From Octopus vulgaris (lineage: Eukaryota), in contig OX597815.1 in assembly GCA_951406725.2 (NCBI GenBank), positions 62,806,001 through 62,870,000 on the forward strand: 64,000 bases of DNA. Direction: 5' to 3'. How positions within the stretch are numbered: position 1 is the first letter of the stretch; the number at the start of each line of letters is the position of its first letter. Both the position numbers and the translations under genes were made by a program. Under the pieces are notes generated by a model. The model was not told the origin of the DNA. It ran no database searches and worked only from the letters and a program-made list of their open reading frames with translations. Below, one piece after another: positions 4,236 through 61,335 of the stretch.

Positions 4236-4806
4236 AAAGCAAAAGAACTAGTTGTAAAATCTCAAGAAAAGATAGAGTACCGGGGTAGTAGACTCTGGCA
4301 TACAGATGCTCAGTACTGAGGACGAGCCAAATAGCTCGAAACTGAGTCAGTATCACGATCCTGATAACTGTTACAGGGTGGTAAAGGTTCGCTACCCCTG
4401 CGAACAATATGTTGTATACAAAGGGTGCAGAGTGTCGCACCAATAACCAGCTGGGAGAGAATCTTCCTGGGGTTAAACGAGTAGTGACATTCAACAGCCA
4501 CTTTGATGTGGAGACTGGCTCTACTGTTTAGCATAATTACTACTCTATCTCTTCGTGAGATTTTACAAGTAGCTGTTTTGCAGGTTTCTTTCAGTTTCCT
4601 TCTACTAAATCCACACACAAATATTTGGTCGCCCCGATACTATAGTAAGAAGACACTTGCCCAAAATGCCACACAGCGGAACTGAACCTACAGGTATTAG
4701 GTTATTAGGTTGGGATGAAAACTTCTTACCATATACCCACACTTACGAATATATACATACATATATACACACATATATTACATATACATATACACACACA
4801 CACACA

Positions 4807-6957
<2,151 letters not shown>

Positions 6958-7840
6958 AATGAAAAATGTATGGTAAATAAACAAACTACATAACGTATAC
7001 TGAGTGTACAACCGGACGGGAGACAGACACAAAAGGTCCTCAATTCTTCATCAGTTAACAACCATTTGGTAATACTCAGTTTCGTTCCATTAATGATAAA
7101 ACTAAGGGTTTCACATATTGGCAGTGTCCGCAAAAATTTTTTCTGGGGGGGGGGGGAGAATTCAGGGACGAGAGCAAACAAATCAAAGCAAAACAACACA
7201 GAATGTGATTTAGGACGGTGGACAAGGAAAAACAGACAAGCAAAATACGGCCTTAGGGCAAAAATGTGTGTGAGTGTGTGTGAGTGTGCATCTGTGTCTG
7301 TGTGCGTGTGTATATTATATATATATATAAGATACATACGTTTAAATACACACATACATGCACATATATACACATACATATATGTGTGTCTCTTTTTATA
7401 TATGTGTATGTATACGTGTATGTATACAGAAAGAGGAGGTGAAAAGGAGAGAAAAGAGGGATGAAAGCGAGCGAAAGAGAAAGAGAGAGAGAGAGAGGGG
7501 AGAGACATTATATACCGTTTGAATGATTTCGGAATGTTCATAAAATACCGACTCTATTGCTGAAATAGATTTATCCCACCATTATTTTACAATCTTTCTA
7601 CCCCTACACCTTCCCTTTCACTGCCAAATACTTCTACTTTCCCATCACCAAAGATTTATATTTAATTTTCCTTTATTTTTCAATGTGTGTTGTTATTGTC
7701 GAGTAAGTCAATCTTACACCCCACCCTCTCATATACACACATACACGCACAGCGACATACACACATCCACGTATATGCTGCATACATAAATTTACATATA
7801 TATATATATATATATGTGTGTGTGTATGTGTGTGTGTGTA

Positions 7841-16539: not shown

Positions 16540-17028
16540 CATTGCTCACACGTGACCAGCGACTATCTTTCTTTCTCCCCCTTGCGCTACAAGAGACAAC
16601 ACACATTTTTGCCAGTCTCCTGTCAAAGCTTGTTTCTTCAGCGTTCACCACTTCACCTCGTTATGGTTTGACAGATCTTAAAGTTTGTTTTTACTGTCCT
16701 GTTTTTGTTAAGACTTTAACCTTCCGCAAATCCCAAATTTTATTTAATTTGCTTTGCAAGAACGACTGTTTAGACGAAGAGGCATCTTGTCCTAAACGTT
16801 CGAAATGCGGAGTAGATAAAACAGGGAACAACTAATTAAGGGATTGTTCTTTATGTTGCCTGTCTCGTTTCTCATTTTGTTTGTTTCGTTGTTCGAAAAA
16901 AGTTCGTTTTCCATGTTTTTGGTTTTTCATGTTCTCGTTTTTCACGTTGTTCATGTTTCTTGACGTCCTGTACCCATATATGCATGTCTATATACATATG
17001 TATGTAGGCATGTACATGTATGTATATA

Positions 17029-22337: not shown

Positions 22338-23622
22338 CGAGGGACGTTCAATAAGTAATGCCTCTGACCCACTTGCAGTTATTTGATCTAGCTGAAATTT
22401 TGCATGTGCAATTATTTATATCTCTATAGAGTAATTAGCAAATTACAGCTCTGAATTGTGGAATTGTGGTTTCTGATTTACAGGTGTTTGAACTGAGTCA
22501 AGTGTGAAATGGAGCCTGTTGAGTGTCGAGCAGTGATCCGGTTTTTGTATTTGAAAGGACGCACACCACGGGAGACTTTTGATGAAATGAAAGTAACTTA
22601 TGGTGATGATGCCCCATCATATGACCTTGTAAAACGCTGGCATCGTGAATTCAAACATGGTCGGAACTCTGTGGAAACAGCTCCCAGATCTGGTTGCCAT
22701 TGATGAGGCATCTGTCCGTCAAATTGAGGCTGCCATTTTCGAAGATCGACGCATAATTATTCGCCAAATAGCCCATGAGGTCAAGATTAGTACCGAGTCT
22801 GTGGAAACTATCCTTCATGACCATTTGCATATGCAAAAGGTGTCTGCCAGATGGATTCCCAGGTTGTTCACGCCTTTCCAGAAGCAAGAACGTTTCGAGT
22901 GCTCGAGGGTGAATTTGGAGATGTGCCAAGAAGATGAGTCAACATTTTTCAAAAGACTGATTACACAGGATGAAACCTGTGTCCATCACGATGATCCAGA
23001 GACCAAAGCCCAGTCAATGCAGTGGAAGCACCGTGACTCACCCCCTCCAAAGAAGGCAAAGGTGCAGCCCTCCGCTGGCAAGGTCATGCTCACAGTCTTC
23101 TGGGACCAGGACGGAGTAGTGATGACAGATTTCCTGGCAAAGGGTACCACAATTGCAGGAGCCTATTATGCTTCACCTTTGAGGAAATTAAGAGAAGTTA
23201 TCAAAATCAAGAGGCGGGGCAAGATCAGCAAAGGCATCCTCCTCCTGCAGGACAACGCTCCGGTCCACAACTCGATGGTCGCCAGATCAGAAGCACAGGC
23301 GTGCGCCTATGAACTCCTCCCCCATGCCCCTACTCTCTTGACCTTGCACCCTCGGATTTTCACCTCTTCCCAGCCATGAAGTTGTTTTTGAAAGGAAAGC
23401 GTTTCCCAGATGATGCAGCCTTGATTTCTGAAGTCACGTTGAGGTTGGAGGACCAAGCTGGGTTCTTCTACAAAAACGGTCTCCAGAGCTGCATCAAACG
23501 ATGGTAGAAATGCGTAACTCTGGGTGGTTTCTATGTAGAAAAAGACTAATAACTGTGCCAAGTTTCGTTGCTCTACTGCTATGGGAAGTGGGTCAGGGGC
23601 ATTACTTATTGAACGCCCCTCG
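22338..23622 (+). mobile_element. Full-length mariner transposon (irritans/Himar-like)
   Basis: TA|CGAGGGACGTTCAATAAGTAATGCCTCTGACCCACTT ... AAGTGGGTCAGGGGCATTACTTATTGAACGCCCCTCG|TA. 1285 bp. Confidence 0.95.
22509..23549 (+). pseudogene. Mariner DD34D transposase, disrupted
   Basis: HTH N-terminus, WIPRL, ITQDET, SAGKVMLTVFWD, QDNAP, YSLDLAPSDFHLF. Frameshifts near 22700 and 23325, and a late premature stop. Confidence 0.93.
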
Positions 23623-25099
23623 TACATGACATAACATGTTAAGATAGGTAAACACTATCGCCCTGAGAAACCAAACAAGGAGAGCAGACATATTTACAAT
23701 TCCAACCAGGATTTCAGCCATAATAGAATCTAGACGGCTGCTAAAAGTAGGAGGGTCTGTAAAAGAGATTTTTGATAGAAGATTCTCGCAATTATAACAA
23801 ATTAATGGTCAACACTTATAACATATATTACTACAAATACTGCCAGGATAATCCTAGTAGTTGCAAAACATCTCTTTCGAATTAAATACAGATCAATAAG
23901 CTATGTACGGATATAGTGTTAAGAGAAGTTATACCTGCTTAGAAAATATTACTTCCTGTATCAAAATTCATAACCGAAATCGTACATACACACCGATTTA
24001 ACCGTAGCAATCACTGTAACAGCCGAAATCAAACCACCTTTCTGCTAAAGCTGTGGTATATAGAGCGACATTCATCCAATTCAACTGTAACTACATAAAC
24101 TATGCGACACTCACTGTTAACAATTTCAAAGGATGGTATAACCAACATCTGCACACCTTTATGTCCAAGAACAGGCAAAACTCTACTTCTTGATCCAATT
24201 CTATTTAGAAACTCAGAGACCAAGGACCTGACTGCCCAACTATATTTTGGAACATCACGTGTACTACGTCATCCTCTAATGAAATACGTAACTACAAACT
24301 CTGCCTTCAATCGAAAATTTCGACGTAATTTCCGATTTTGCAGTTGACAATTTCTCTAATAACAATTTCAACTAATCGAACTGGAAAATAACACAAGCTA
24401 GGCTACAACAAACGTGAATAATGATGAGTAGCCACCGCATCGTAACGAAAGCTAATCTCGGCTCAGTTACTGCTTTACAATTTAGAAGCATTATATGGTG
24501 ACAATGTCATCACGTGATCTGCCTCTACAGCTGGGAACCAATTTTATCAACTATCAATAAGGACCTGCCATTCAAGTTGTTTGCGCCGAAATTTTAGTTT
24601 ATGGTGAGCATCAGAATTATGCGACATGGGAGTTTTTCGTACTTATAAATCTCCGAGTAATCTCGAATTTAATGCTTTGATGATTTTCTTGACTTTTATA
24701 TTTGAACTTGATTCGGATGACGGATTCATTCTAGAATTAATCAAGCTTGTTCTGTTTTGGAAGGTTGTCATCGTTCAAGAATGTTCCTGTCGATGATTTC
24801 TTTCTTCTTACACTTTGCAAAATTCACACACTCACACAAACGCACCCACCCAACACACACATACACATACGCACGCACACACACACACACACACACATGT
24901 GTCTTTTGTTTCTTTTACTTGTTTCAGTTATTAGACTGCTGCCATGCTGGGGCAGCAGCCTGAAGGATAATAAGCCTGTAACTTATTTTATTGGTCCTTT
25001 TGCCGAACCAACAAGTTACGGGGACAGAAGCATATCAACATCGGCTGTCAAGTGGTGGTGAGGAACAAACATAGGAATAAACGAGCGCACACAGATATA

Positions 25100-25690
25100 T
25101 ATTTCCCGTCGTTCACCCGCGACGTCACTTCCGCTGCTGTCTCTCTCAAGGTAATGGACGACTTTTCTTCTTGCTCCGCTCGTCATCCATAAAAAATTCT
25201 GCGTTTGCAATACTTTTTTTCGTTCGGCGTCAACAGCCCTTCTTATCTTGTTTTTCCTTGTCCTGTCCTTTACTGTTTACAATTTGTACTGTCGTTACTG
25301 TCCTGTTTTTACCATTTTTTACCCCTCTGCGAAAAGATCTCAGAATTTTAATTGATTTGCTTTTTGCAGGAAGGAAAGTTTTCTTGTCGAAGATACGTCT
25401 CGCTTTTATCCTTCGAAACGTAGAGTAGATGAAACCTTTAGCGACTGAAGGAGGGTTTTTTTCTTTGTGTTAATTGTCCCGTACTCTATTTTTTTTGCTG
25501 TTTCTAAATCAATGTCCAGTTCCTTTGGTTTGTGTCTATGTTTTCGTTTCTCATTGTGTTCGACGTCCTTTTGGTGTCCTGTACTCATATATGCGTGTAT
25601 ATGTACATGTAGAGGTAGGTACGTACATATATGTTTATATATATGCATATGTTTTATTTTATTTATTAATATATTATATATATATATTTA
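25100..25690 (+). mobile_element. Repeat family P, copy 2
   Basis: Homology to 16540-17035 and 60780-61335. Confidence 0.65.
25365..25469 (+). ncRNA. Permuted hammerhead-like motif, copy 2
   Basis: TACG-TC-TCGCT..TCCTTC-GAAA-CGTA...AGCGA-CTGAAGG. GUC triplet at 25397-25399. Confidence 0.65.
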
Positions 25691-26340: not shown

Positions 26341-26447
26341 TCCTCCTTTTCACCGAACGTCGAGATAATGCATTCCTTCTGCATATCCTCTTATTATTCG
26401 CTAATTTTATTTATTTATTTGAATCATTTGTTTGAATTGACTATATA

Positions 26448-27170
26448 CGAGGGGCGTTCAATAAGTAATGCCCCTGACCCACTTCCCATAGCAGTAGAGT
26501 AACGAAACTTGGCACAGTTATTAGTCTTTTTCTACATAGAAACCACCCAGAGTTACGCATTTCTCCCATCGTTTGATGCAGCTCTGGAGACCGTTTTTGT
26601 AGAAGAACCCAGCTTGGTCCTCCAACCTCAACGTGACTTCAGAAATCAAGGCTGCATCATCTGGGAAACGCTTTCCTTTCAAAAACAACTTCATGGCTGG
26701 GAAGAGGTGAAAATCCGAGGGTGCAAGGTCAAGAGAGTAGGGGCATGGGGGAGGAGTTCATAGGCGCACGCCTGTGCTTCTGATCTGGCGACCATCGAGT
26801 TGTGGACCGGAGCGTTGTCCTGCAGGAGGAGGATGCCTTTGCTGATCTTGCCCCGCCTCTTGATTTTGATAACTTCTCTTAATTTCCTCAAAGGTGAAGC
26901 ATAATAGGCTCCTGCAATTGTGGTACCCTTTGCCAGGAAATCTGTCATCACTACTCCGTCCTGGTCCCAGAAGACTGTGAGCATGACCTTGCCAGCGGAG
27001 GGCTGCACCTTTGCCTTCTTTGGAGGGGGTGAGTCACGGTGCTTCCACTGCATTGACTGGGCTTTGGTCTCTGGATCATCGTGATGGACCCAGGTTTCAT
27101 CCTGTGTAATCAGTCTTTTGAAAAATGTTGACTCATCTTCTTGGCACATCTCCAAATTCACCCTCGAGCA
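26448..27170 (-). mobile_element. 5'-truncated mariner copy, inverted relative to 22338-23622
   Basis: Near-identical reverse complement of 22900-23622, including the right TIR and TA. Confidence 0.95.
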
Positions 27171-32723: not shown

Positions 32724-34224
32724 CAGTCCGACCCGTCCACTTCACACCTCTTCCCTAACCGACCCCTCCCCTCTTTCAAACGAGCCCACAACCTTCGAGA
32801 CCTTTTGGTCCATAGCTCCTTCCCTGACCCTACCTCCCAACCCGGCTCGTTCCCCTGCTCCCGCCCACGTTGCCGCACTTGCCCTTACCTCTCCAACACC
32901 ACCCGCCTCACTAGCACCCACCATCGACCCTATCCCATCATCCACTCCTTCACCTGCACCTCCAGCAATATTATCTATTGCATCTCTTGCTCTCTCTGCA
33001 ATTCCTTGTACATCGGACAAACGGGACGCCGCTTGGCTGACCGGTTCGCGGAACACCTTCGTGACATCCACCTTGCGAACGACACACCGGTCTCACGCCA
33101 TTTCCGCTCCACCGGTCACTCCTTGCAACACCTATCTGTGTTCGGTTTGTCCTTACACAGAGGCCATCCGGATTCCCGTTTGCGCCGTGAACAGGAATTA
33201 ATCTTCTCTCTTCGCTCTTATACGCCATTTGGTCTCAACTCTCCCCCCTCCTCATCTAACCCCCTCTCCCCCTCCTCACCTATCCTTTCTCCCCCCGACC
33301 CCCACTTCTTCAGTCCTTCATCCTTTCACCCCTACTCCCCTTCCCTTCTTCCCTCTTTCTCCCTCCCTCTTCCTCTTCCCTCTGCTCCCTCACTCCCTCT
33401 CTCCCCTTCTCTCTCCCCCTCTCCCTCTTTCCTCCTTCATCCCTCTCCTCCCCTTCCTTCTCCCCATCCTCTCCTCTTCACCCTCCCCTCCCCCTCTTCT
33501 TCCCCCCCTTCTCCCCCTCTTCTCCCCTCCCCCTCTTCTCCTCACTACACCACATGACTTTACACATCACATCACATATGATGTGCCATACTAATACACA
33601 CACCAACTAATACATACTAATACGTACTAATACATACTAGTACATACTAATACTTACACCAACCCTATACATACACACGTCCAGACCCCGCATACGCACT
33701 TATACTCTCTCACACACACACACACACACCTATACATACCAATACGTACTAATACATACTAATACATACTAATACATACACCAACCCCATACATACGCAC
33801 GTCCAGACCAATCCCACGCACTGATACTCTCTCATACACACACACACACACACACACACCCTTATACATACTAATACATACACCAACCCTATACATACAC
33901 ATCCAGACCCCTCCCACGCACTTTTAGCTGGTCCCTCAACCCTATTATCTCCCCTTATTTCGCTCTCGCGTCTCATGTTTGATCTTTGACCTCTGGCCGA
34001 AATCAGATCGCCATGTTGATTCGTTAGCTACTGCACGCATTTTTTTCTCTCCTTCTTTCTGTGTTTTTCTCTCTCTGTGTATCTTTCTGTTGAAGAGCGT
34101 AGGCTCGAAACGTTAAAGACTTGTTTTATTTATATTTCCTGAGCGCCATACTAATACAATTGTTCGTTTGTTTTCCACCTGCCTTCGTCTTTTGTTTATT
34201 TTCATAAAGCTTCCCGTTATATAT
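32721..34224 (+). repeat. 5' pseudo-LTR (duplicated 3' 1.5 kb: Cys linker, GIY-YIG, UTR, hammerhead)
   Basis: Identical translation LQSDPSTSHLFP...PFGLN. Differences seen are one synonymous SNP (CCT/CCA) and indels in simple-sequence tracts. Confidence 0.95.
34082..34119 (+). ncRNA. Minimal type I hammerhead ribozyme (variant core CUGUUGA+A)
   Basis: TCTTT-CTGTTGA-A-GAGC-GTAG-GCTC-GAAA-CG-TT-AAAGA. Confidence 0.8.
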
Positions 34225-34846
34225 TATGCGCTCACGTGGTCTCACTTTCATCCTATATTCTACCAATACCACTATCAACACTTACCTCTACCTTGGATTT
34301 TCTTTACCTCTTGGATACTTACCATCGGCTGCACCTCTCTTTCGCGGATCAAAGTGACTTTGCATTGATGTGAAATCCTTAAAAAATATACCACGACGTC
34401 TACACATTTCTCACCTTGAACTTTCAACCTTGAACTTGTTCGCATAAACTGTCCCGTTTGTTGTATTTTTTATTTTCTCTTATATTACCACTTTTTTTAC
34501 ATTCATTTCATGCTTTCCACATTTTCCTGAATTTTTGTTCTCCTTTCCGTCTTTCTTCCCTCTCTGGATGTCCATACTCCGTTTCCTCTGCCTGCACCCC
34601 CCTTTTTTTTGCCTCCCCCTCTCTCTGCTTCCCTTCTTTCTTTCCCTTTTCCGTTTGCCCCGTCTTTTCTGCCCCTATCGCTTACTTATCTAGTTTTTTC
34701 ATACGATTATTATTTTTTTTATTTTTTTATTTTTTTTGTTTTTTTGAACGTTTGTTTTTTCCCCTTTTTTTCTATTTTTTTCATACGATAATTTTTGTTT
34801 TTTGTTTTTTTTGTTTTTTCGAACGTTTTTTTTCCGCTATCCCATC

Positions 34847-37800
34847 ATGCCGGATCCTAGGTCCTACCTCCTCACCCTCAATCACCGTTTGAAGGATCAT
34901 CTACGTTCGCTTCCTGTATATCGCCTTCAGCCGTCCGTTAATCTCTCTCTACTTCTTTTTAAAAAAACCCGCTTCTCTAGCCATGTCTCTTTCCTAAGCC
35001 GCTGCCTACATCACCGACTCATCCCTAAAGGTTTCCGCCTCCACTTCCACCCTGCTCTCCACTCGGATTCTTCCATCTTACCCATACTCCGCACCACATC
35101 TTACCGCCTTATGCGGGCCACCATTCGCTCCAATCTCTCCAAACTACAAGCCATCAACCGCCTTCTTCCTCCTGCTTTCTCCACCTTCTTCTCCTCTCTG
35201 CCGCCTCTCTATGCTCCAAACACGCTACGCTTCATTATCCATTTGAATCAACTCTTCCATCAATTTCTTTCTGATACCAAACTTCGTAAACTCCAATCAC
35301 TCTTCCATTCCACCCTACCCGACGCCACTACCCCAACTCCTCCACCACCCTTCTCCCCTCCCGATAGGCTCCATCCACCCACACCTAACCCCACTGCCCC
35401 TCCCTACAACCCCTTCTCCCCTCCCGTTAGGCTCCATCCACCTACACCTAACCCTACTGCCCCGCCCAACCACCCCCCCACACACCTCCCCAATCCCTCC
35501 CCCTCAGACCTCCACGAGACCTACCACCCCTCCTACTTCTATTCCACCCACCCCTTCTCCACTTCCGTCTGTTGTTACCATTCCCCCCGATCTTCCCCTC
35601 TCTGCGGCTGAACGCTCCGTCCTTGGTAGGGGTCTGCGTTTCATCCCCCTCACTCCATCCTGTAAGGAATTCCAGACGCGAGTTGATGTCCACAGCTTTG
35701 TGCGCCGTGTCCGGTTGGGTGCGCATTACCATGACTCGCCACCCACACCCAACGAAGAGGACGACTGCTTCACTGGCCTGGGCCGCCGACCATCCCCGTG
35801 GACGCCTGCCCCTGGCCAGATCCTAGCAGTGGATCTTTTCGCGGGCGCTTGTCAGCGTGCATTGGAGCGGTTCAACTTCTCCAGGCGCCAACGCCGCCTC
35901 AACATCTCCCCGGCTGAGCTCTTGGCTCTTCGTTCCCTCCAACGGCGCGCTGACATTATCATCAAACCGGCTGACAAGGGTGGAGCTGTAGTGGTGTGGC
36001 GCACGGACCTCTATAGGGCTGAGGCTTTCCGCCAACTCAATGACACCTCCTTCTATTCCCCTCTGCCCTCTAACCCCACACGTAGCTACCAACAGACGGT
36101 ATCCTCTACTGTCCAAGACCTCATCTCGTCCTCCCGTCTCCCCCGCACCGCATCCAACCTAATTGTGCGAACCCCACGTACCCCCACCATTTACTTCCTC
36201 CCCAAAATCCACAAACCCAACAACCCTGGCCGCCCCATCGTCTCCGCCTGTAACTGCCCCACGGAGCTCATCTCTAAATACCTCGACCGTGTCCTTGCCC
36301 CCCTAGTGGCATCTCTTCCCTCCCACATCCACGATACCAACCATGCTCTCCGGCTTTTCAACTCTTTCTCCTTTCCTCCCGGCTCCTCCAAAATCCTTTA
36401 CTATGGACATCCAAAGCCTCTATACTGTTATCCCTCACCACGAAGGACTGCAGGCCCTTCGACACTTTCTTGACCTCCGCTCTAACCCTGTACCTGACAC
36501 CTCCACACTCATTCGTCTGGCCGAACTTGTCCTTACTCTGAACTGCTTCTCGTTCGCGGGCGAGTTCTACCATCAGGTCTCGGGAGTGGCCATGGGAACG
36601 CGAATGGGCCCCAACTATGCGACACTGTTCGTTGGCTATGTTGAGGCCCAAATATTCTCTACTTTCACTGGTCCCACTCCTGAACTATATGGTCGTTATA
36701 TTGACGACATTATCGGTGCCACCTCACTCTCCCGCGAACATCTAGATTCCTTCCTCTCTTTCGTCCAATCTTTCCATCCAGCCCTCCACTTCACTTCCAC
36801 TATCTCCAACACCTCTGTCTCCTTCCTCGACATTTCGGTTAGCATTTTTGACTCCACTCTTACCACCTCCATTCACTACAAACACACAGACTCACACTCA
36901 TACCTCAACTTCTCTTCCTCCCACCCAGAACACACCAAGCTTTCCATCCCCTATTCCCAATTCCTCCGTCTACGTAGGCTCTGTAGTGACGACCATGACT
37001 TTGAGACTCAGTCTCAACGTATGGCTCACCACTTCACCCTACGTGGATACCCCCTCACCACTATCCACACCGCCCTTGCCAGAGCACGGTCCGTGGACCG
37101 TGTATCTGCTCTCTCTCCCCGAACCCGCCCTGTAGTCTCCCACCTCCCTTTTCCCCTCACTTACCACCCCACGACCCTACGTCTCCAACGCACCATTCTT
37201 CGAGCTTTCCGTCGTCTCCAGTCCGACCCGTCCACTTCACACCTCTTCCCTAACCGACCCCTCCCCTCTTTCAAACGAGCCCACAACCTTCGAGACCTTT
37301 TGGTCCATAGCTCCTTCCCTGACCCTACCTCCCAACCCGGCTCGTTCCCCTGCTCCCGCCCACGTTGCCGCACTTGCCCATACCTCTCCAACACCACCCG
37401 CCTCACTAGCACCCACCATCGACCCTATCCCATCATCCACTCCTTCACCTGCACCTCCAGCAATATTATCTATTGCATCTCTTGCTCTCTCTGCAATTCC
37501 TTGTACATCGGACAAACGGGACGCCGCTTGGCTGACCGGTTCGCGGAACACCTTCGTGACATCCACCTTGCGAACGACACACCGGTCTCACGCCATTTCC
37601 GCTCCACCGGTCACTCCTTGCAACACCTATCTGTGTTCGGTTTGTCCTTACACAGAGGCCATCCGGATTCCCGTTTGCGCCGTGAACAGGAATTAATCTT
37701 CTCTCTTCGCTCTTATACGCCATTTGGTCTCAACTCTCCCCCCTCCTCATCTAACCCCCTCTCCCCCTCCTCACCTATCCTTTCTCCCCCCGACCCCCAC

Positions 37801-38085
37801 TTCTTCAGTCCTTCATCCTTTCACCCCTACTCCCCTTCCCTTCTTCCCTCTTTCTCCCTCCCTCTTCCTCTTCCCTCTGCTCCCTCACTCCCTCTCTCCC
37901 CTTCTCTCTCCCCCTCTCCCTCTTTCCTCCTTCATCCCTCTCCTCCCCTTCCTTCTCCCCATCCTCTCCTCTTCACCCTCCCCTCCCCTTCTTCTCCCCC
38001 TCTTCTCCCCTCTTCTCCCCCCCCTCTTCTCCTCACTACACCACATGACTTTACACATCACATCACATATGATGTGCCATACTAA
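34847..38085 (+). CDS. PLE polyprotein (RT plus GIY-YIG endonuclease), two frameshifts
   Basis: FLSRC....IPKG, ERSVLGRGLRFIP, KPADKG, LPKIHK..GRPIVS, MDIQSLYT, GVAMG, RYIDD, FLD, CSRPRCRTC, NIIYCISCSLC..YIGQTGR. Frameshifts at ~35460-35570 and ~36398. Confidence 0.9.
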
Positions 38086-38572
38086 TACACACACCAACTA
38101 ATACATACTAATACGTACTAATACATACTAGTACATACTAATACTTACACCAACCCTATACATACACACGTCCAGACCCCGCATACGCACTTATACTCTC
38201 TCACACACACACACACACACACCTATACATACCAATACGTACTAATACATACTAATACATACTAATACATACACCAACCCCATACATACGCACGTCCAGA
38301 CCAATCCCACGCACTGATACTCTCTCATACACACACACACACACACACACCCTTATACATACTAATACATACACCAACCCTATACATACACATCCAGACC
38401 CCTCCCACGCACTTTTAGCTGGTCCCTCAACCCTATTATCTCCCCTTATTTCGCTCTCGCGTCTCATGTTTGATCTTTGACCTCTGGCCGAAATCAGATC
38501 GCCATGTTGATTCGTTAGCTACTGCACGCATTTTTTTCTCTCCTTCTTTCTGTGTTTTTCTCTCTCTGTGTA

Positions 38573-38610
38573 TCTTTCTGTTGAAGAGCGTAGGCTCGAA
38601 ACGTTAAAGA
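38573..38610 (+). ncRNA. Minimal type I hammerhead ribozyme, 3' copy
   Basis: Identical to 34082-34119. Confidence 0.8.
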
Positions 38611-38707
38611 CTTGTTTTATTTATATTTCCTGAGCGCCATACTAATACAATTGTTCGTTTGTTTTCCACCTGCCTTCGTCTTTTGTTTATTTTCATAAAG
38701 CTTCCCG

Positions 38708-38809
<102 letters not shown>

Positions 38810-46699: not shown

Positions 46700-46915
46700 T
46701 GTGTTTGATTTTGCTTTTATACCTCAAGCTGAACTGCTGAACTCTACTGTGTCTTTTTTCATTCTGTCTCTATTTTTCCTTTTATTCCTTTCTGTCGAAG
46801 AGCGTATGCTCGAAACGTAAAAGACTTTTCTATTTTTCCCGAGCGTCAATCTAATACACTTGCTTGTTCCCACACCTGTCTTCCTCTTTTGTTTTTTTTA
46901 TAAATTTCCACTACA
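46700..46915 (+). mobile_element. Short PLE 3'-terminal fragment with hammerhead (46787-46825)
   Basis: CTTT-CTGTCGA-A-GAGC-GTAT-GCTC-GAAA-CG-TA-AAAG. The downstream sequence aligns with 38610-38710. Confidence 0.75.

Positions 46916-60292: not shown

Positions 60293-61335
<1,043 letters not shown>

Follow-up and report, generated by a model that had tools for sequence, protein, structure and literature searches.

A predicted non-circularly permuted hammerhead with a variable hinge in Penelope-like elements of Octopus vulgaris

The element and its genomic surroundings

The window analysed here, a 64-kb stretch of Octopus vulgaris DNA, holds three copies of one structured RNA motif, which we name after their positions, and a decayed copy of an unrelated family with the same layout:

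25103..~25690, + strand: 5'-truncated copy of a non-coding Penelope-like retroelement, with boundaries taken from 30 genomic copies (25k copy)
16719..16842, + strand: second motif copy, B16 subfamily, with a k-turn consensus hinge and a decayed core (16k copy)
61027..61148, - strand: third motif copy, C61 subfamily, with an intact core, a 10-bp outer helix, a 4x5 internal loop and no k-turn (61k copy)
7042..7163 (approximate), - strand: decayed copy from a third, unrelated family, which shares the six-helix layout and has no k-turn

The full unit of the 25k family measures ~850 nt, often lies head-to-tail, and carries an AT-rich 3' tail inside (TA)n. A piece of the element's own tail precedes 15 of 17 full-length heads, copies occupy (TA)n insertion sites, and many of them are 5'-truncated or inverted; the partial-tandem (pLTR) structure, inversions and (TA)n targets by which Naiads are recognised are all present. 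Because tandem heads, (TA)n sites and 5' truncations with inversions are marks given in passages of PMC8557442, we label the family a putative non-autonomous Penelope-like element. A closer assignment to the Naiads (Craig et al. 2021, PMC8557442) would draw on layout and insertion habits, the letters being unlike. The family resembles the Naiads, as parts of that paper describe them, in its (TA)n targets, head-to-tail partial tandems and 5' truncation with inversions, whereas it is non-coding, and the corresponding passages contain no permuted fold; its 3' motif has the layout of the Naiad_Ovul motif in unrelated letters. Non-LTR retrozymes and minimal type I Penelope hammerheads, according to excerpts of PMC4209133 and bioRxiv 10.64898/2026.07.22.740005, are likewise non-coding, tandem-prone, hammerhead-bearing Penelope derivatives, but theirs are circularly ordered type I hammerheads with a short palindromic stem III, whereas the octopus motif is permuted and has a full stem III. 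A type I hammerhead in each tandem unit, which together with a circular RNA intermediate marks non-LTR retrozymes, was not found in the 25k family, where the order is permuted; the excerpted preprint deals with type I hammerheads only.

Across the 2.8-Gb O. vulgaris assembly, the core pattern YTCGAAA-N22-40-CTGANGAAGG occurs 8,979 times as an exact match, compared with 34 occurrences of the reversed pattern. Rfam at gathering thresholds gave no match in the 64-kb window, and BLAST against phage sequences returned short chance matches only. At the loci examined, no coding ORF was linked to the 25k-family unit, nor specifically any ORF with an N-terminal GIY-YIG and a C-terminal RT, and an autonomous partner was found neither there nor in genome ORF and endonuclease searches. 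Three candidate partners were rejected: a decayed Penelope ORF beside locus L040 has no motif downstream, Naiad-like endonuclease matches were only decayed fragments, and a young Penelope family with a C-terminal endonuclease has a different 3' end. Elsewhere, loci L354, L355, L356 and L359 hold a young Penelope family with 784-codon open frames, whose 3' end bears a type I-like motif with an altered core.

Several further features were observed in the window. The stretch CGACGTCACTTCCG at 25118-25134 (+), doubled in longer copies and followed by a splice-donor-like AAGGTAA, is presumably CRE/ETS-like and represents a possible internal promoter. The 25k copy is flanked on both sides by the arms of a 728-nt inverted repeat (22900-23627 and 26443-27170; 99% complementary), which contains mariner-type transposase fragments (PF01359). 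A near-complete Penelope-like element at 33900-38712 (+) has a C-terminal GIY-YIG-like region, a frameshifted RT (weak RVT_1 match) and two pLTRs. Both pLTRs carry a minimal type I hammerhead-like motif, at 34087 and at 38578, and motifs related to these occur at 46792 and 57842. A canonical type I hammerhead-like motif at 4316-4345 (+), with CTGAGGA, a 5-bp stem II and GAAAC, is probably part of another Penelope pLTR.

Layout of the motif

The motif in the 25k copy resolves into the following elements, with the basis of each reading in brackets where it goes beyond the letters:

25321..25326, + strand: strand x (ACCCCT), which pairs with e just 3' of the core and closes the motif (95% paired, nearly invariant; e is partly fixed by the search pattern)
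25327..25369, + strand: hairpin P0, between x and a (92% paired, 5/7 pairs changed on both sides; recovered by folding)
25370..25374, + strand: strand a (GAAGG), the stem II 5' strand supplied from upstream, with G25370 as would-be G10.1 (pairs with 25410-14)
25375..25387, + strand: strand b, the 5' side of the outer helix (= helix 'I' of type SGC), and an irregular stretch up to the hinge (complementarity, covariation)
25388..25393, + strand: bulged strand of the hinge, C(-1b) GAA(L1-3) G(1b) A(2b), a k-turn consensus in the 25k subfamily
25394..25399, + strand: 5' strand of stem III, U16.1 (25398) and C17 (25399), with the predicted cut after 25399 (GUC) (stem III 95% paired, 4/5 pairs changed on both sides)
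25400..25404, + strand: stem I strand d (TCGCT), then a 5-nt linker (93.5% paired, 5/6 pairs changed on both sides)
25410..25418, + strand: strand a' (CCTTC) and the GAAA core (sequence and covariation)
25419..25425, + strand: 3' strand of stem III (CGTA), then hinge G(2n) A(1n) G(-1n)
25431..25439, + strand: strand b', the 3' side of the outer helix, with no linker before stem I
25440..25456, + strand: stem I strand d' (AGCGA), core CTGAAGG and strand e (the family core is CTGAAGA)

These strands follow one another as x-[hairpin P0]-a-b-hinge-stem III-UH-stem I-linker-a'-GAAA-stem III'-hinge'-b'-stem I'-CUGANGA-e, and the subfamily majority lines hold the hammerhead core CUGANGA, GAAA and NUH together with stems I-III. 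As judged from its sequence, the motif is a non-circularly permuted hammerhead in which the order runs site-GAAA-CUGANGA. The pairing of stem II, on which the initial annotation was silent, takes its 5' strand from upstream and not from the bases after CUGANGA: a and a' are 96% paired with 3/5 pairs changed on both sides, and the a' variants CCTTC, CGTTC, CGCTC and TGCTC track the upstream a strands GAAGG, GAACG, GAGCG and GAGCA. Helix x/e and P0 are inserted between A9 and G10.1 without leaving any base unpaired. Linkers of 0-2 nt connect the outer helix b/b' to stem I and to stem II at their distal ends. A stem II built from the AGGG that follows CUGANGA was tried and rejected, this stretch being 81% paired with a' and showing 0 double changes; it pairs instead with the upstream CCCT strand, which P0 joins to the stem II strand. 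Since AGGG and a' can still form 3-4 G-C/G-U pairs, both folds may exist.

Covariation was measured in 26 hand-picked natural copies of the 25k family. The six helices are 90.7% paired, with double-sided changes in 22 of the 33 pairs, scores that relatedness among the copies inflates; covariation lay above all 500 shuffles in 3/5 measures and above all slid controls, and the measure of 'further pair types' did not exceed the shuffles. Among 98 genomic core matches, about half of which are 5'-truncated, 19 score positive for all six helices and 37 do so for stems I and III, while viral contigs, used as a chance control with a near-identical core pattern, gave 0/106 passing even stems I and III. 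Single-sequence folds, computed without pseudoknots, are not unusually stable (z from -2.3 to +1.1), and RNA folding of one copy (L018) recovers x/e and P0. The window's own 25k copy is likely impaired, as it has G at A9 (25451), where A stands in 30 of 32 aligned core-holding copies. A splice acceptor at 25369 (CAG/G) was considered and rejected, B16 copies often reading CGG and S6 copies TGG.

The type-SGC hammerhead (HRIMA-1; Eckert et al. 2023) is self-cleaving in vitro; how its stem III connects to helix I was left open in the passages of PMC10085705 cited here. The octopus motif shares with it the site-GAAA-CUGANGA order, a stem I-stem II linker of 3-5 nt, an extra helix that bridges stems I and II at their distal ends, and a short link from stem III to that helix. 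It differs in that the stem II 5' strand lies upstream, whereas in SGC it directly follows CUGANGA (block C), which breaks the assumption in that paper of an indivisible block C; in addition, two helices stand between A9 and G10.1, and both strands reach the extra helix by way of the hinge. The same passages place non-circularly permuted hammerheads in metatranscriptomes of unknown hosts, plus one doubtful bacterial case, and report no SGC in genomes of known organisms, whereas the octopus motif is genomic, animal and high-copy. The words 'kink' and 'k-turn' do not occur in main-text passages of PMC10085705, and a literature search, mostly at abstract level and with few subscription journals, found no paper on a permuted hammerhead from Naiads or octopus, nor on one that carries a k-turn.

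Hinge states within and between families

The initial annotation had read a k-turn consensus into all three window copies, and two of these readings hold. In the 25k copy, C25388, the bulge GAA (25389-91) and GA (25392-93) face GA (25423-24) and G25425, next to a stem III of TACG/CGTA (25394-97 / 25419-22), and in the 16k copy, whose core has decayed to CTAATTA, the hinge is C-GAA-GA-GGCA / TGCG-GA-G. We take this GAA-GA/GA-G form to be the core of Kt-7. The 61k copy had been given as C-GA-GA/GA-G but actually reads C-GAGA-CGTG / CACG-CTG-GA-G, with 3 extra bases between stem III and the 3' GA and a 5' strand that has no 3-nt bulge. Its GAGA is found in the window copy only when set against its 31 closest relatives (GAGT in 29/31, GAGG in 1), and recurs in a small side branch of the tree. 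A reversed k-turn with a 2-nt bulge is possible on paper for the 61k loop; no test supported it and it was rejected.

The second co-varying helix proposed beyond the hinge is complementary in all three copies in mutually different letters, but it shows the weakest covariation of the six helices (in one fixed alignment, 75% paired with 4/6 pairs changed on both sides, partly through register shifts). In the 25k copy 8/9 pairs form between AAAGTTTTC at 25375-83 and GAAACCTTT at 25431-39, one base to the left of where this helix had been placed. Beside the bulge, the helix is reduced there to a single C-G pair followed by the mismatches U.U and G.A, after which the outer helix begins; the B16 majority line has two pairs beside the bulge.

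For a census of hinge states, we took the first 100 listed of the 8,979 core matches, selected by a pattern lying outside the hinge. Of these, 99 were recovered; 46 passed a filter that asked for an intact 5' side (stems I and III, strand a), and 53 were dropped as truncated, decayed or chance. Only 17 of the 46 intact copies have GA/GA, so the hinge bases are not conserved family-wide, the outcome that the initial annotation had itself named as refuting its reading: 14 carry the full consensus, another 3 combine GA/GA with a -1 pair that is not Watson-Crick, 8 are GT/GA, and 21 have other loops. GA stands directly after stem III in 56 of the 99 pattern matches. As several dropped copies are GT-type by eye, the k-turn share of 17/46 is, if anything, overstated.

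On a tree of 50 rows, from whose alignment the hinge bases were left out, GA/GA falls into two clades with GT and other states in between. The consensus hinge occurs in the 25k subfamily, part of B16, and S6. Nested inside the 25k clade (100/100 support) is a young subfamily, on average 1.6% from its own majority line (6 copies), in which both GA steps have become A-U pairs next to a GAAG bulge; the k-turn is therefore not needed for spreading. As far as these copies indicate, the k-turn is a lineage-specific option and no conserved part of the motif.

The base pair at 3b:3n is Watson-Crick in 16 of the 17 GA/GA copies. Since such k-turns fold poorly in metal ions alone according to the rules set out in parts of PMC8191799, these copies are predicted to be poor folders in ions alone, which is compatible with assistance by a protein or by the fold around the hinge, and also with no folding at all. 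The GT/GA hinges would lose A2b, which, as passages of PMC5061560 describe, accepts one of two near-universal cross-strand hydrogen bonds of k-turns.

Two further families share the six-helix layout in O. vulgaris. The 3' motif of Naiad_Obim/Ovul (the second family) has 921 genome pattern matches versus 60 for the control, in letters unrelated to those of the 25k family; a primer taken from the published Naiad_Ovul consensus has a single exact match. The hinge of this family, in 16 intact copies from 30 loci, shows a k-turn consensus of opposite polarity, with both GA steps in 14/16, U at L3 in 16/16, U.U at 3b:3n in 15/16, and variable L1 and L2, a pattern that we take to be that of box C/D and U4 k-turns. 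The five bases downstream of CUGANGA pair with a' at 1-3 of 5 positions in intact copies of this family. The third family gave 542 first-look candidates in the genome, and its majority line (25 loci) holds all six helices and no GA/GA hinge. Strands x and e have other letters in the second and third families and are still complementary. All three families have an asymmetric loop, bulge or junction directly outside the short stem III, and all three, unrelated as they are, keep the core bases and the not-G rule at position 17, as do the subfamilies of the 25k family.

Standard k-turns kink by about 50 degrees with A-minor cross-strand hydrogen bonds and bind L7Ae/Snu13, as the octopus hinges may do. 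Set against standard k-turns (H. marismortui Kt-7, U4 snRNA, box C/D; as presented in passages of PMC5061560 and PMC8191799), the 25k and 16k hinges agree in their 3-nt bulge, G.A and A.G pairs, and C:G at -1b:-1n. The second family agrees in its (A/G)(A/G)U bulge and U.U at 3b:3n. The octopus hinges depart from the standard in their non-conservation within a family, the weak canonical helix (25k), the Watson-Crick 3b:3n, and a polarity that differs between families.

The same layout can be read by eye in Naiad consensuses from the supplement of PMC8557442, namely those of Beroe, three Acropora, two Octopus and Eulimnadia, as well as in three further cnidarian-region Naiad records. These readings, made by eye and not computed, cover part of the 54 Naiads and find the layout in at least those named, which represent four phyla. 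Their hinges include 3-, 5- and 6-nt bulges, extra junctions, and, in the clam-shrimp Naiad_EuTe, only a 1-nt bulge between stem III and b/b'. Naiads are reported in the passages cited of PMC8557442 to lack canonical hammerheads, some being marked 'HHR_core' or 'HHR_half_core', and it is in these elements that the permuted layout seems to be present.

Cleavage and the fold of the motif

We asked where 25k-family copies end at their 5' side, using 93 copies anchored at the 3' tail, one of them cut by a locus edge. In 21 of the 93 the 5' end lies 0-19 nt after the predicted cut, and 3 ends fall in the 60 nt before it; the 21 ends among 69 at-risk copies compare with a background of 0.048 per 20 nt (p=6e-12). 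Removal of the nine ends at +5..+8, which show TA microhomology, leaves p=1e-4. The peak is spread over -1..+19 with its mode at +7 and not at 0, and at +7 the element offers TAT to a (TA)n target. Position 17, on which the copies were unselected, is not G in 46/46 intact copies. The peak of 5' ends is indirect evidence of cleavage, and the motif likely cuts its own RNA after position 25399.

On balance we lean towards a monomeric, caged permuted hammerhead with an interchangeable hinge, for which the k-turn would be one solution, cleavage and kinking both being predictions. The motif would correspond to the validated type SGC, circularly permuted by an opening within the inserted helix; b/b' would link the distal ends of stems I and II like the SGC helix 'I', yet both of its strands also enter stem III. 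In hammerheads, stem I lies alongside a near-collinear stack of stems II and III (passages of PMC6155905), so that stem III would point away from stems I and II and the RNA of a monomer would need to double back between stem III and b/b', at the hinge. Because no more than 0-2 nt separate the outer helix from stems I and II, a sharp turn would be needed in the monomer at the very site first annotated. The proposal that a kink makes the permuted topology feasible is thus borne out in part: the outer helix does adjoin the distal ends of stems I and II, but the k-turn itself is not conserved. K-turns are replaced by other bends in homologous RNAs such as lysine riboswitches (passages of PMC5061560), and the bend site here takes several forms: two clades carry the k-turn consensus with a GAA bulge, the second family carries a reversed consensus resembling box C/D, and the remaining hinges are GT/GA loops, plain bulges, internal loops or extra junctions. 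Hinges with an intact consensus would likely adopt the k-turn fold when assisted by the cage or by Snu13, help that the Watson-Crick 3b:3n would call for. Tandem transcripts would be trimmed by cleavage, and reverse transcription, with its priming site in the AT-rich tail, would often run off at the cut and give rise to the peak of short copies. Observations that count against this reading include the 1-nt bulge of Naiad_EuTe, which would be too straight for a monomer unless b/b' melts, the weak 25k helix beside the bulge, the unremarkable fold z-scores, the spread of the 5'-end peak with its mode at +7, the pairing that AGGG can form with a', the dispensability of ribozyme cleavage for insertion in vitro in another Penelope element (passages of PMC11167929), and the failure to find an autonomous partner in the searches made. 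A bolder form of this reading, possible though on the doubtful side, would see an unrecognised reverse-order hammerhead branch in animal Naiads, with a caged four-way junction in the catalytic core (a seventh arrangement beyond six) and k-turns of either polarity arising independently, on which host Snu13 would switch on cleavage.

The rival readings partly overlap. The ribozyme might form between two tandem units, one unit's loop (cut site, a', GAAA) meeting the next unit's free ends (a, stem I', CUGANGA). The stem III arm could then stay straight, and the hinge would serve only to space the parts or to mark the site for a protein. We regard this reading as unlikely. The tail piece ahead of 15/17 full-length heads would suit such a pairing of units, as would the description of Penelope hammerheads as dimer-type in parts of PMC4209133 and the tolerance of the hinge for very different sequences, down to the 1-nt bulge of Naiad_EuTe. 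A loop, bulge or junction just outside the short stem III in all three families and k-turn consensuses of opposite polarity in two of them speak against it, and single type-SGC constructs cleave in vitro, some without a linker between stem III and helix I (passages of PMC10085705).

The GA/GA match could also be incidental, the hinge being a floppy purine-rich loop with no k-turn fold and no L7Ae/Snu13 binding while the ribozyme still works. Position 2b speaks for this, being A in just 25 of the 46 intact copies and T in 16, as do the alternation of GT/GA states on the tree, the weak adjoining helix of the 25k subfamily, and the poor ion-induced folding predicted from the Watson-Crick 3b:3n. 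The constancy of U at L3, of GA/GA and of U.U in the second family, with L1 and L2 varying, speaks against it, as does the identity of the GAA-GA/GA-G form with the Kt-7 core; we consider an incidental match improbable to a similar degree.

Less probable again is a conserved RNA structure whose cleavage is lost or too rare to matter, and which would serve as a binding or pausing site for an element protein, with the 5'-end peak produced by pausing and TA microhomology. The mode at +7, where TAT is available to the (TA)n target, would be expected then. In passages of PMC11167929 the Penelope ribozyme of Anolis needed protein for cleavage, was dispensable for insertion in vitro and gave no reads ending at the site, and we found no natural hammerhead with helices between A9 and G10.1 in print. 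This reading is countered by the excess that survives removal of the microhomology class, by the sharp drop of ends 5' of the site, and by the core bases and not-G rule kept across subfamilies and three unrelated families. The strong form of the initial annotation, a conserved k-turn that enables the permuted fold and lets Snu13 control cleavage family-wide, has the consensus in 25k, part of B16 and S6 and the reversed one in the Naiad_Ovul-type family in its favour, but 29/46 intact copies are without GA/GA, the C61 clade and the 1.6%-divergent young subfamily spread without it, and a third family has no k-turn, so that non-conservation largely refutes it and we consider it very improbable.

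The k-turn by itself matters less than the initial annotation assumed, though it may offer a handle by which a protein could control the ribozyme; the weight is carried more by the ribozyme layout. If the motif cleaves, non-circularly permuted hammerheads would be abundant in animal genomes, and the thriving of Naiads without canonical hammerheads (as parts of PMC8557442 describe them) would reflect a blind spot of search descriptors. On a single scaffold the hinges form a natural series of k-turn, reversed k-turn, bulges and junctions, so that the path by which stem III reaches the stem I-II helix becomes accessible to direct tests. Several nematode Naiads in the supplement of PMC8557442 resemble type CSG by eye, and one arachnid-region Naiad record resembles true type SGC, its stem III meeting helix I without a linker, so that Naiads would hold several reverse-order permutations.
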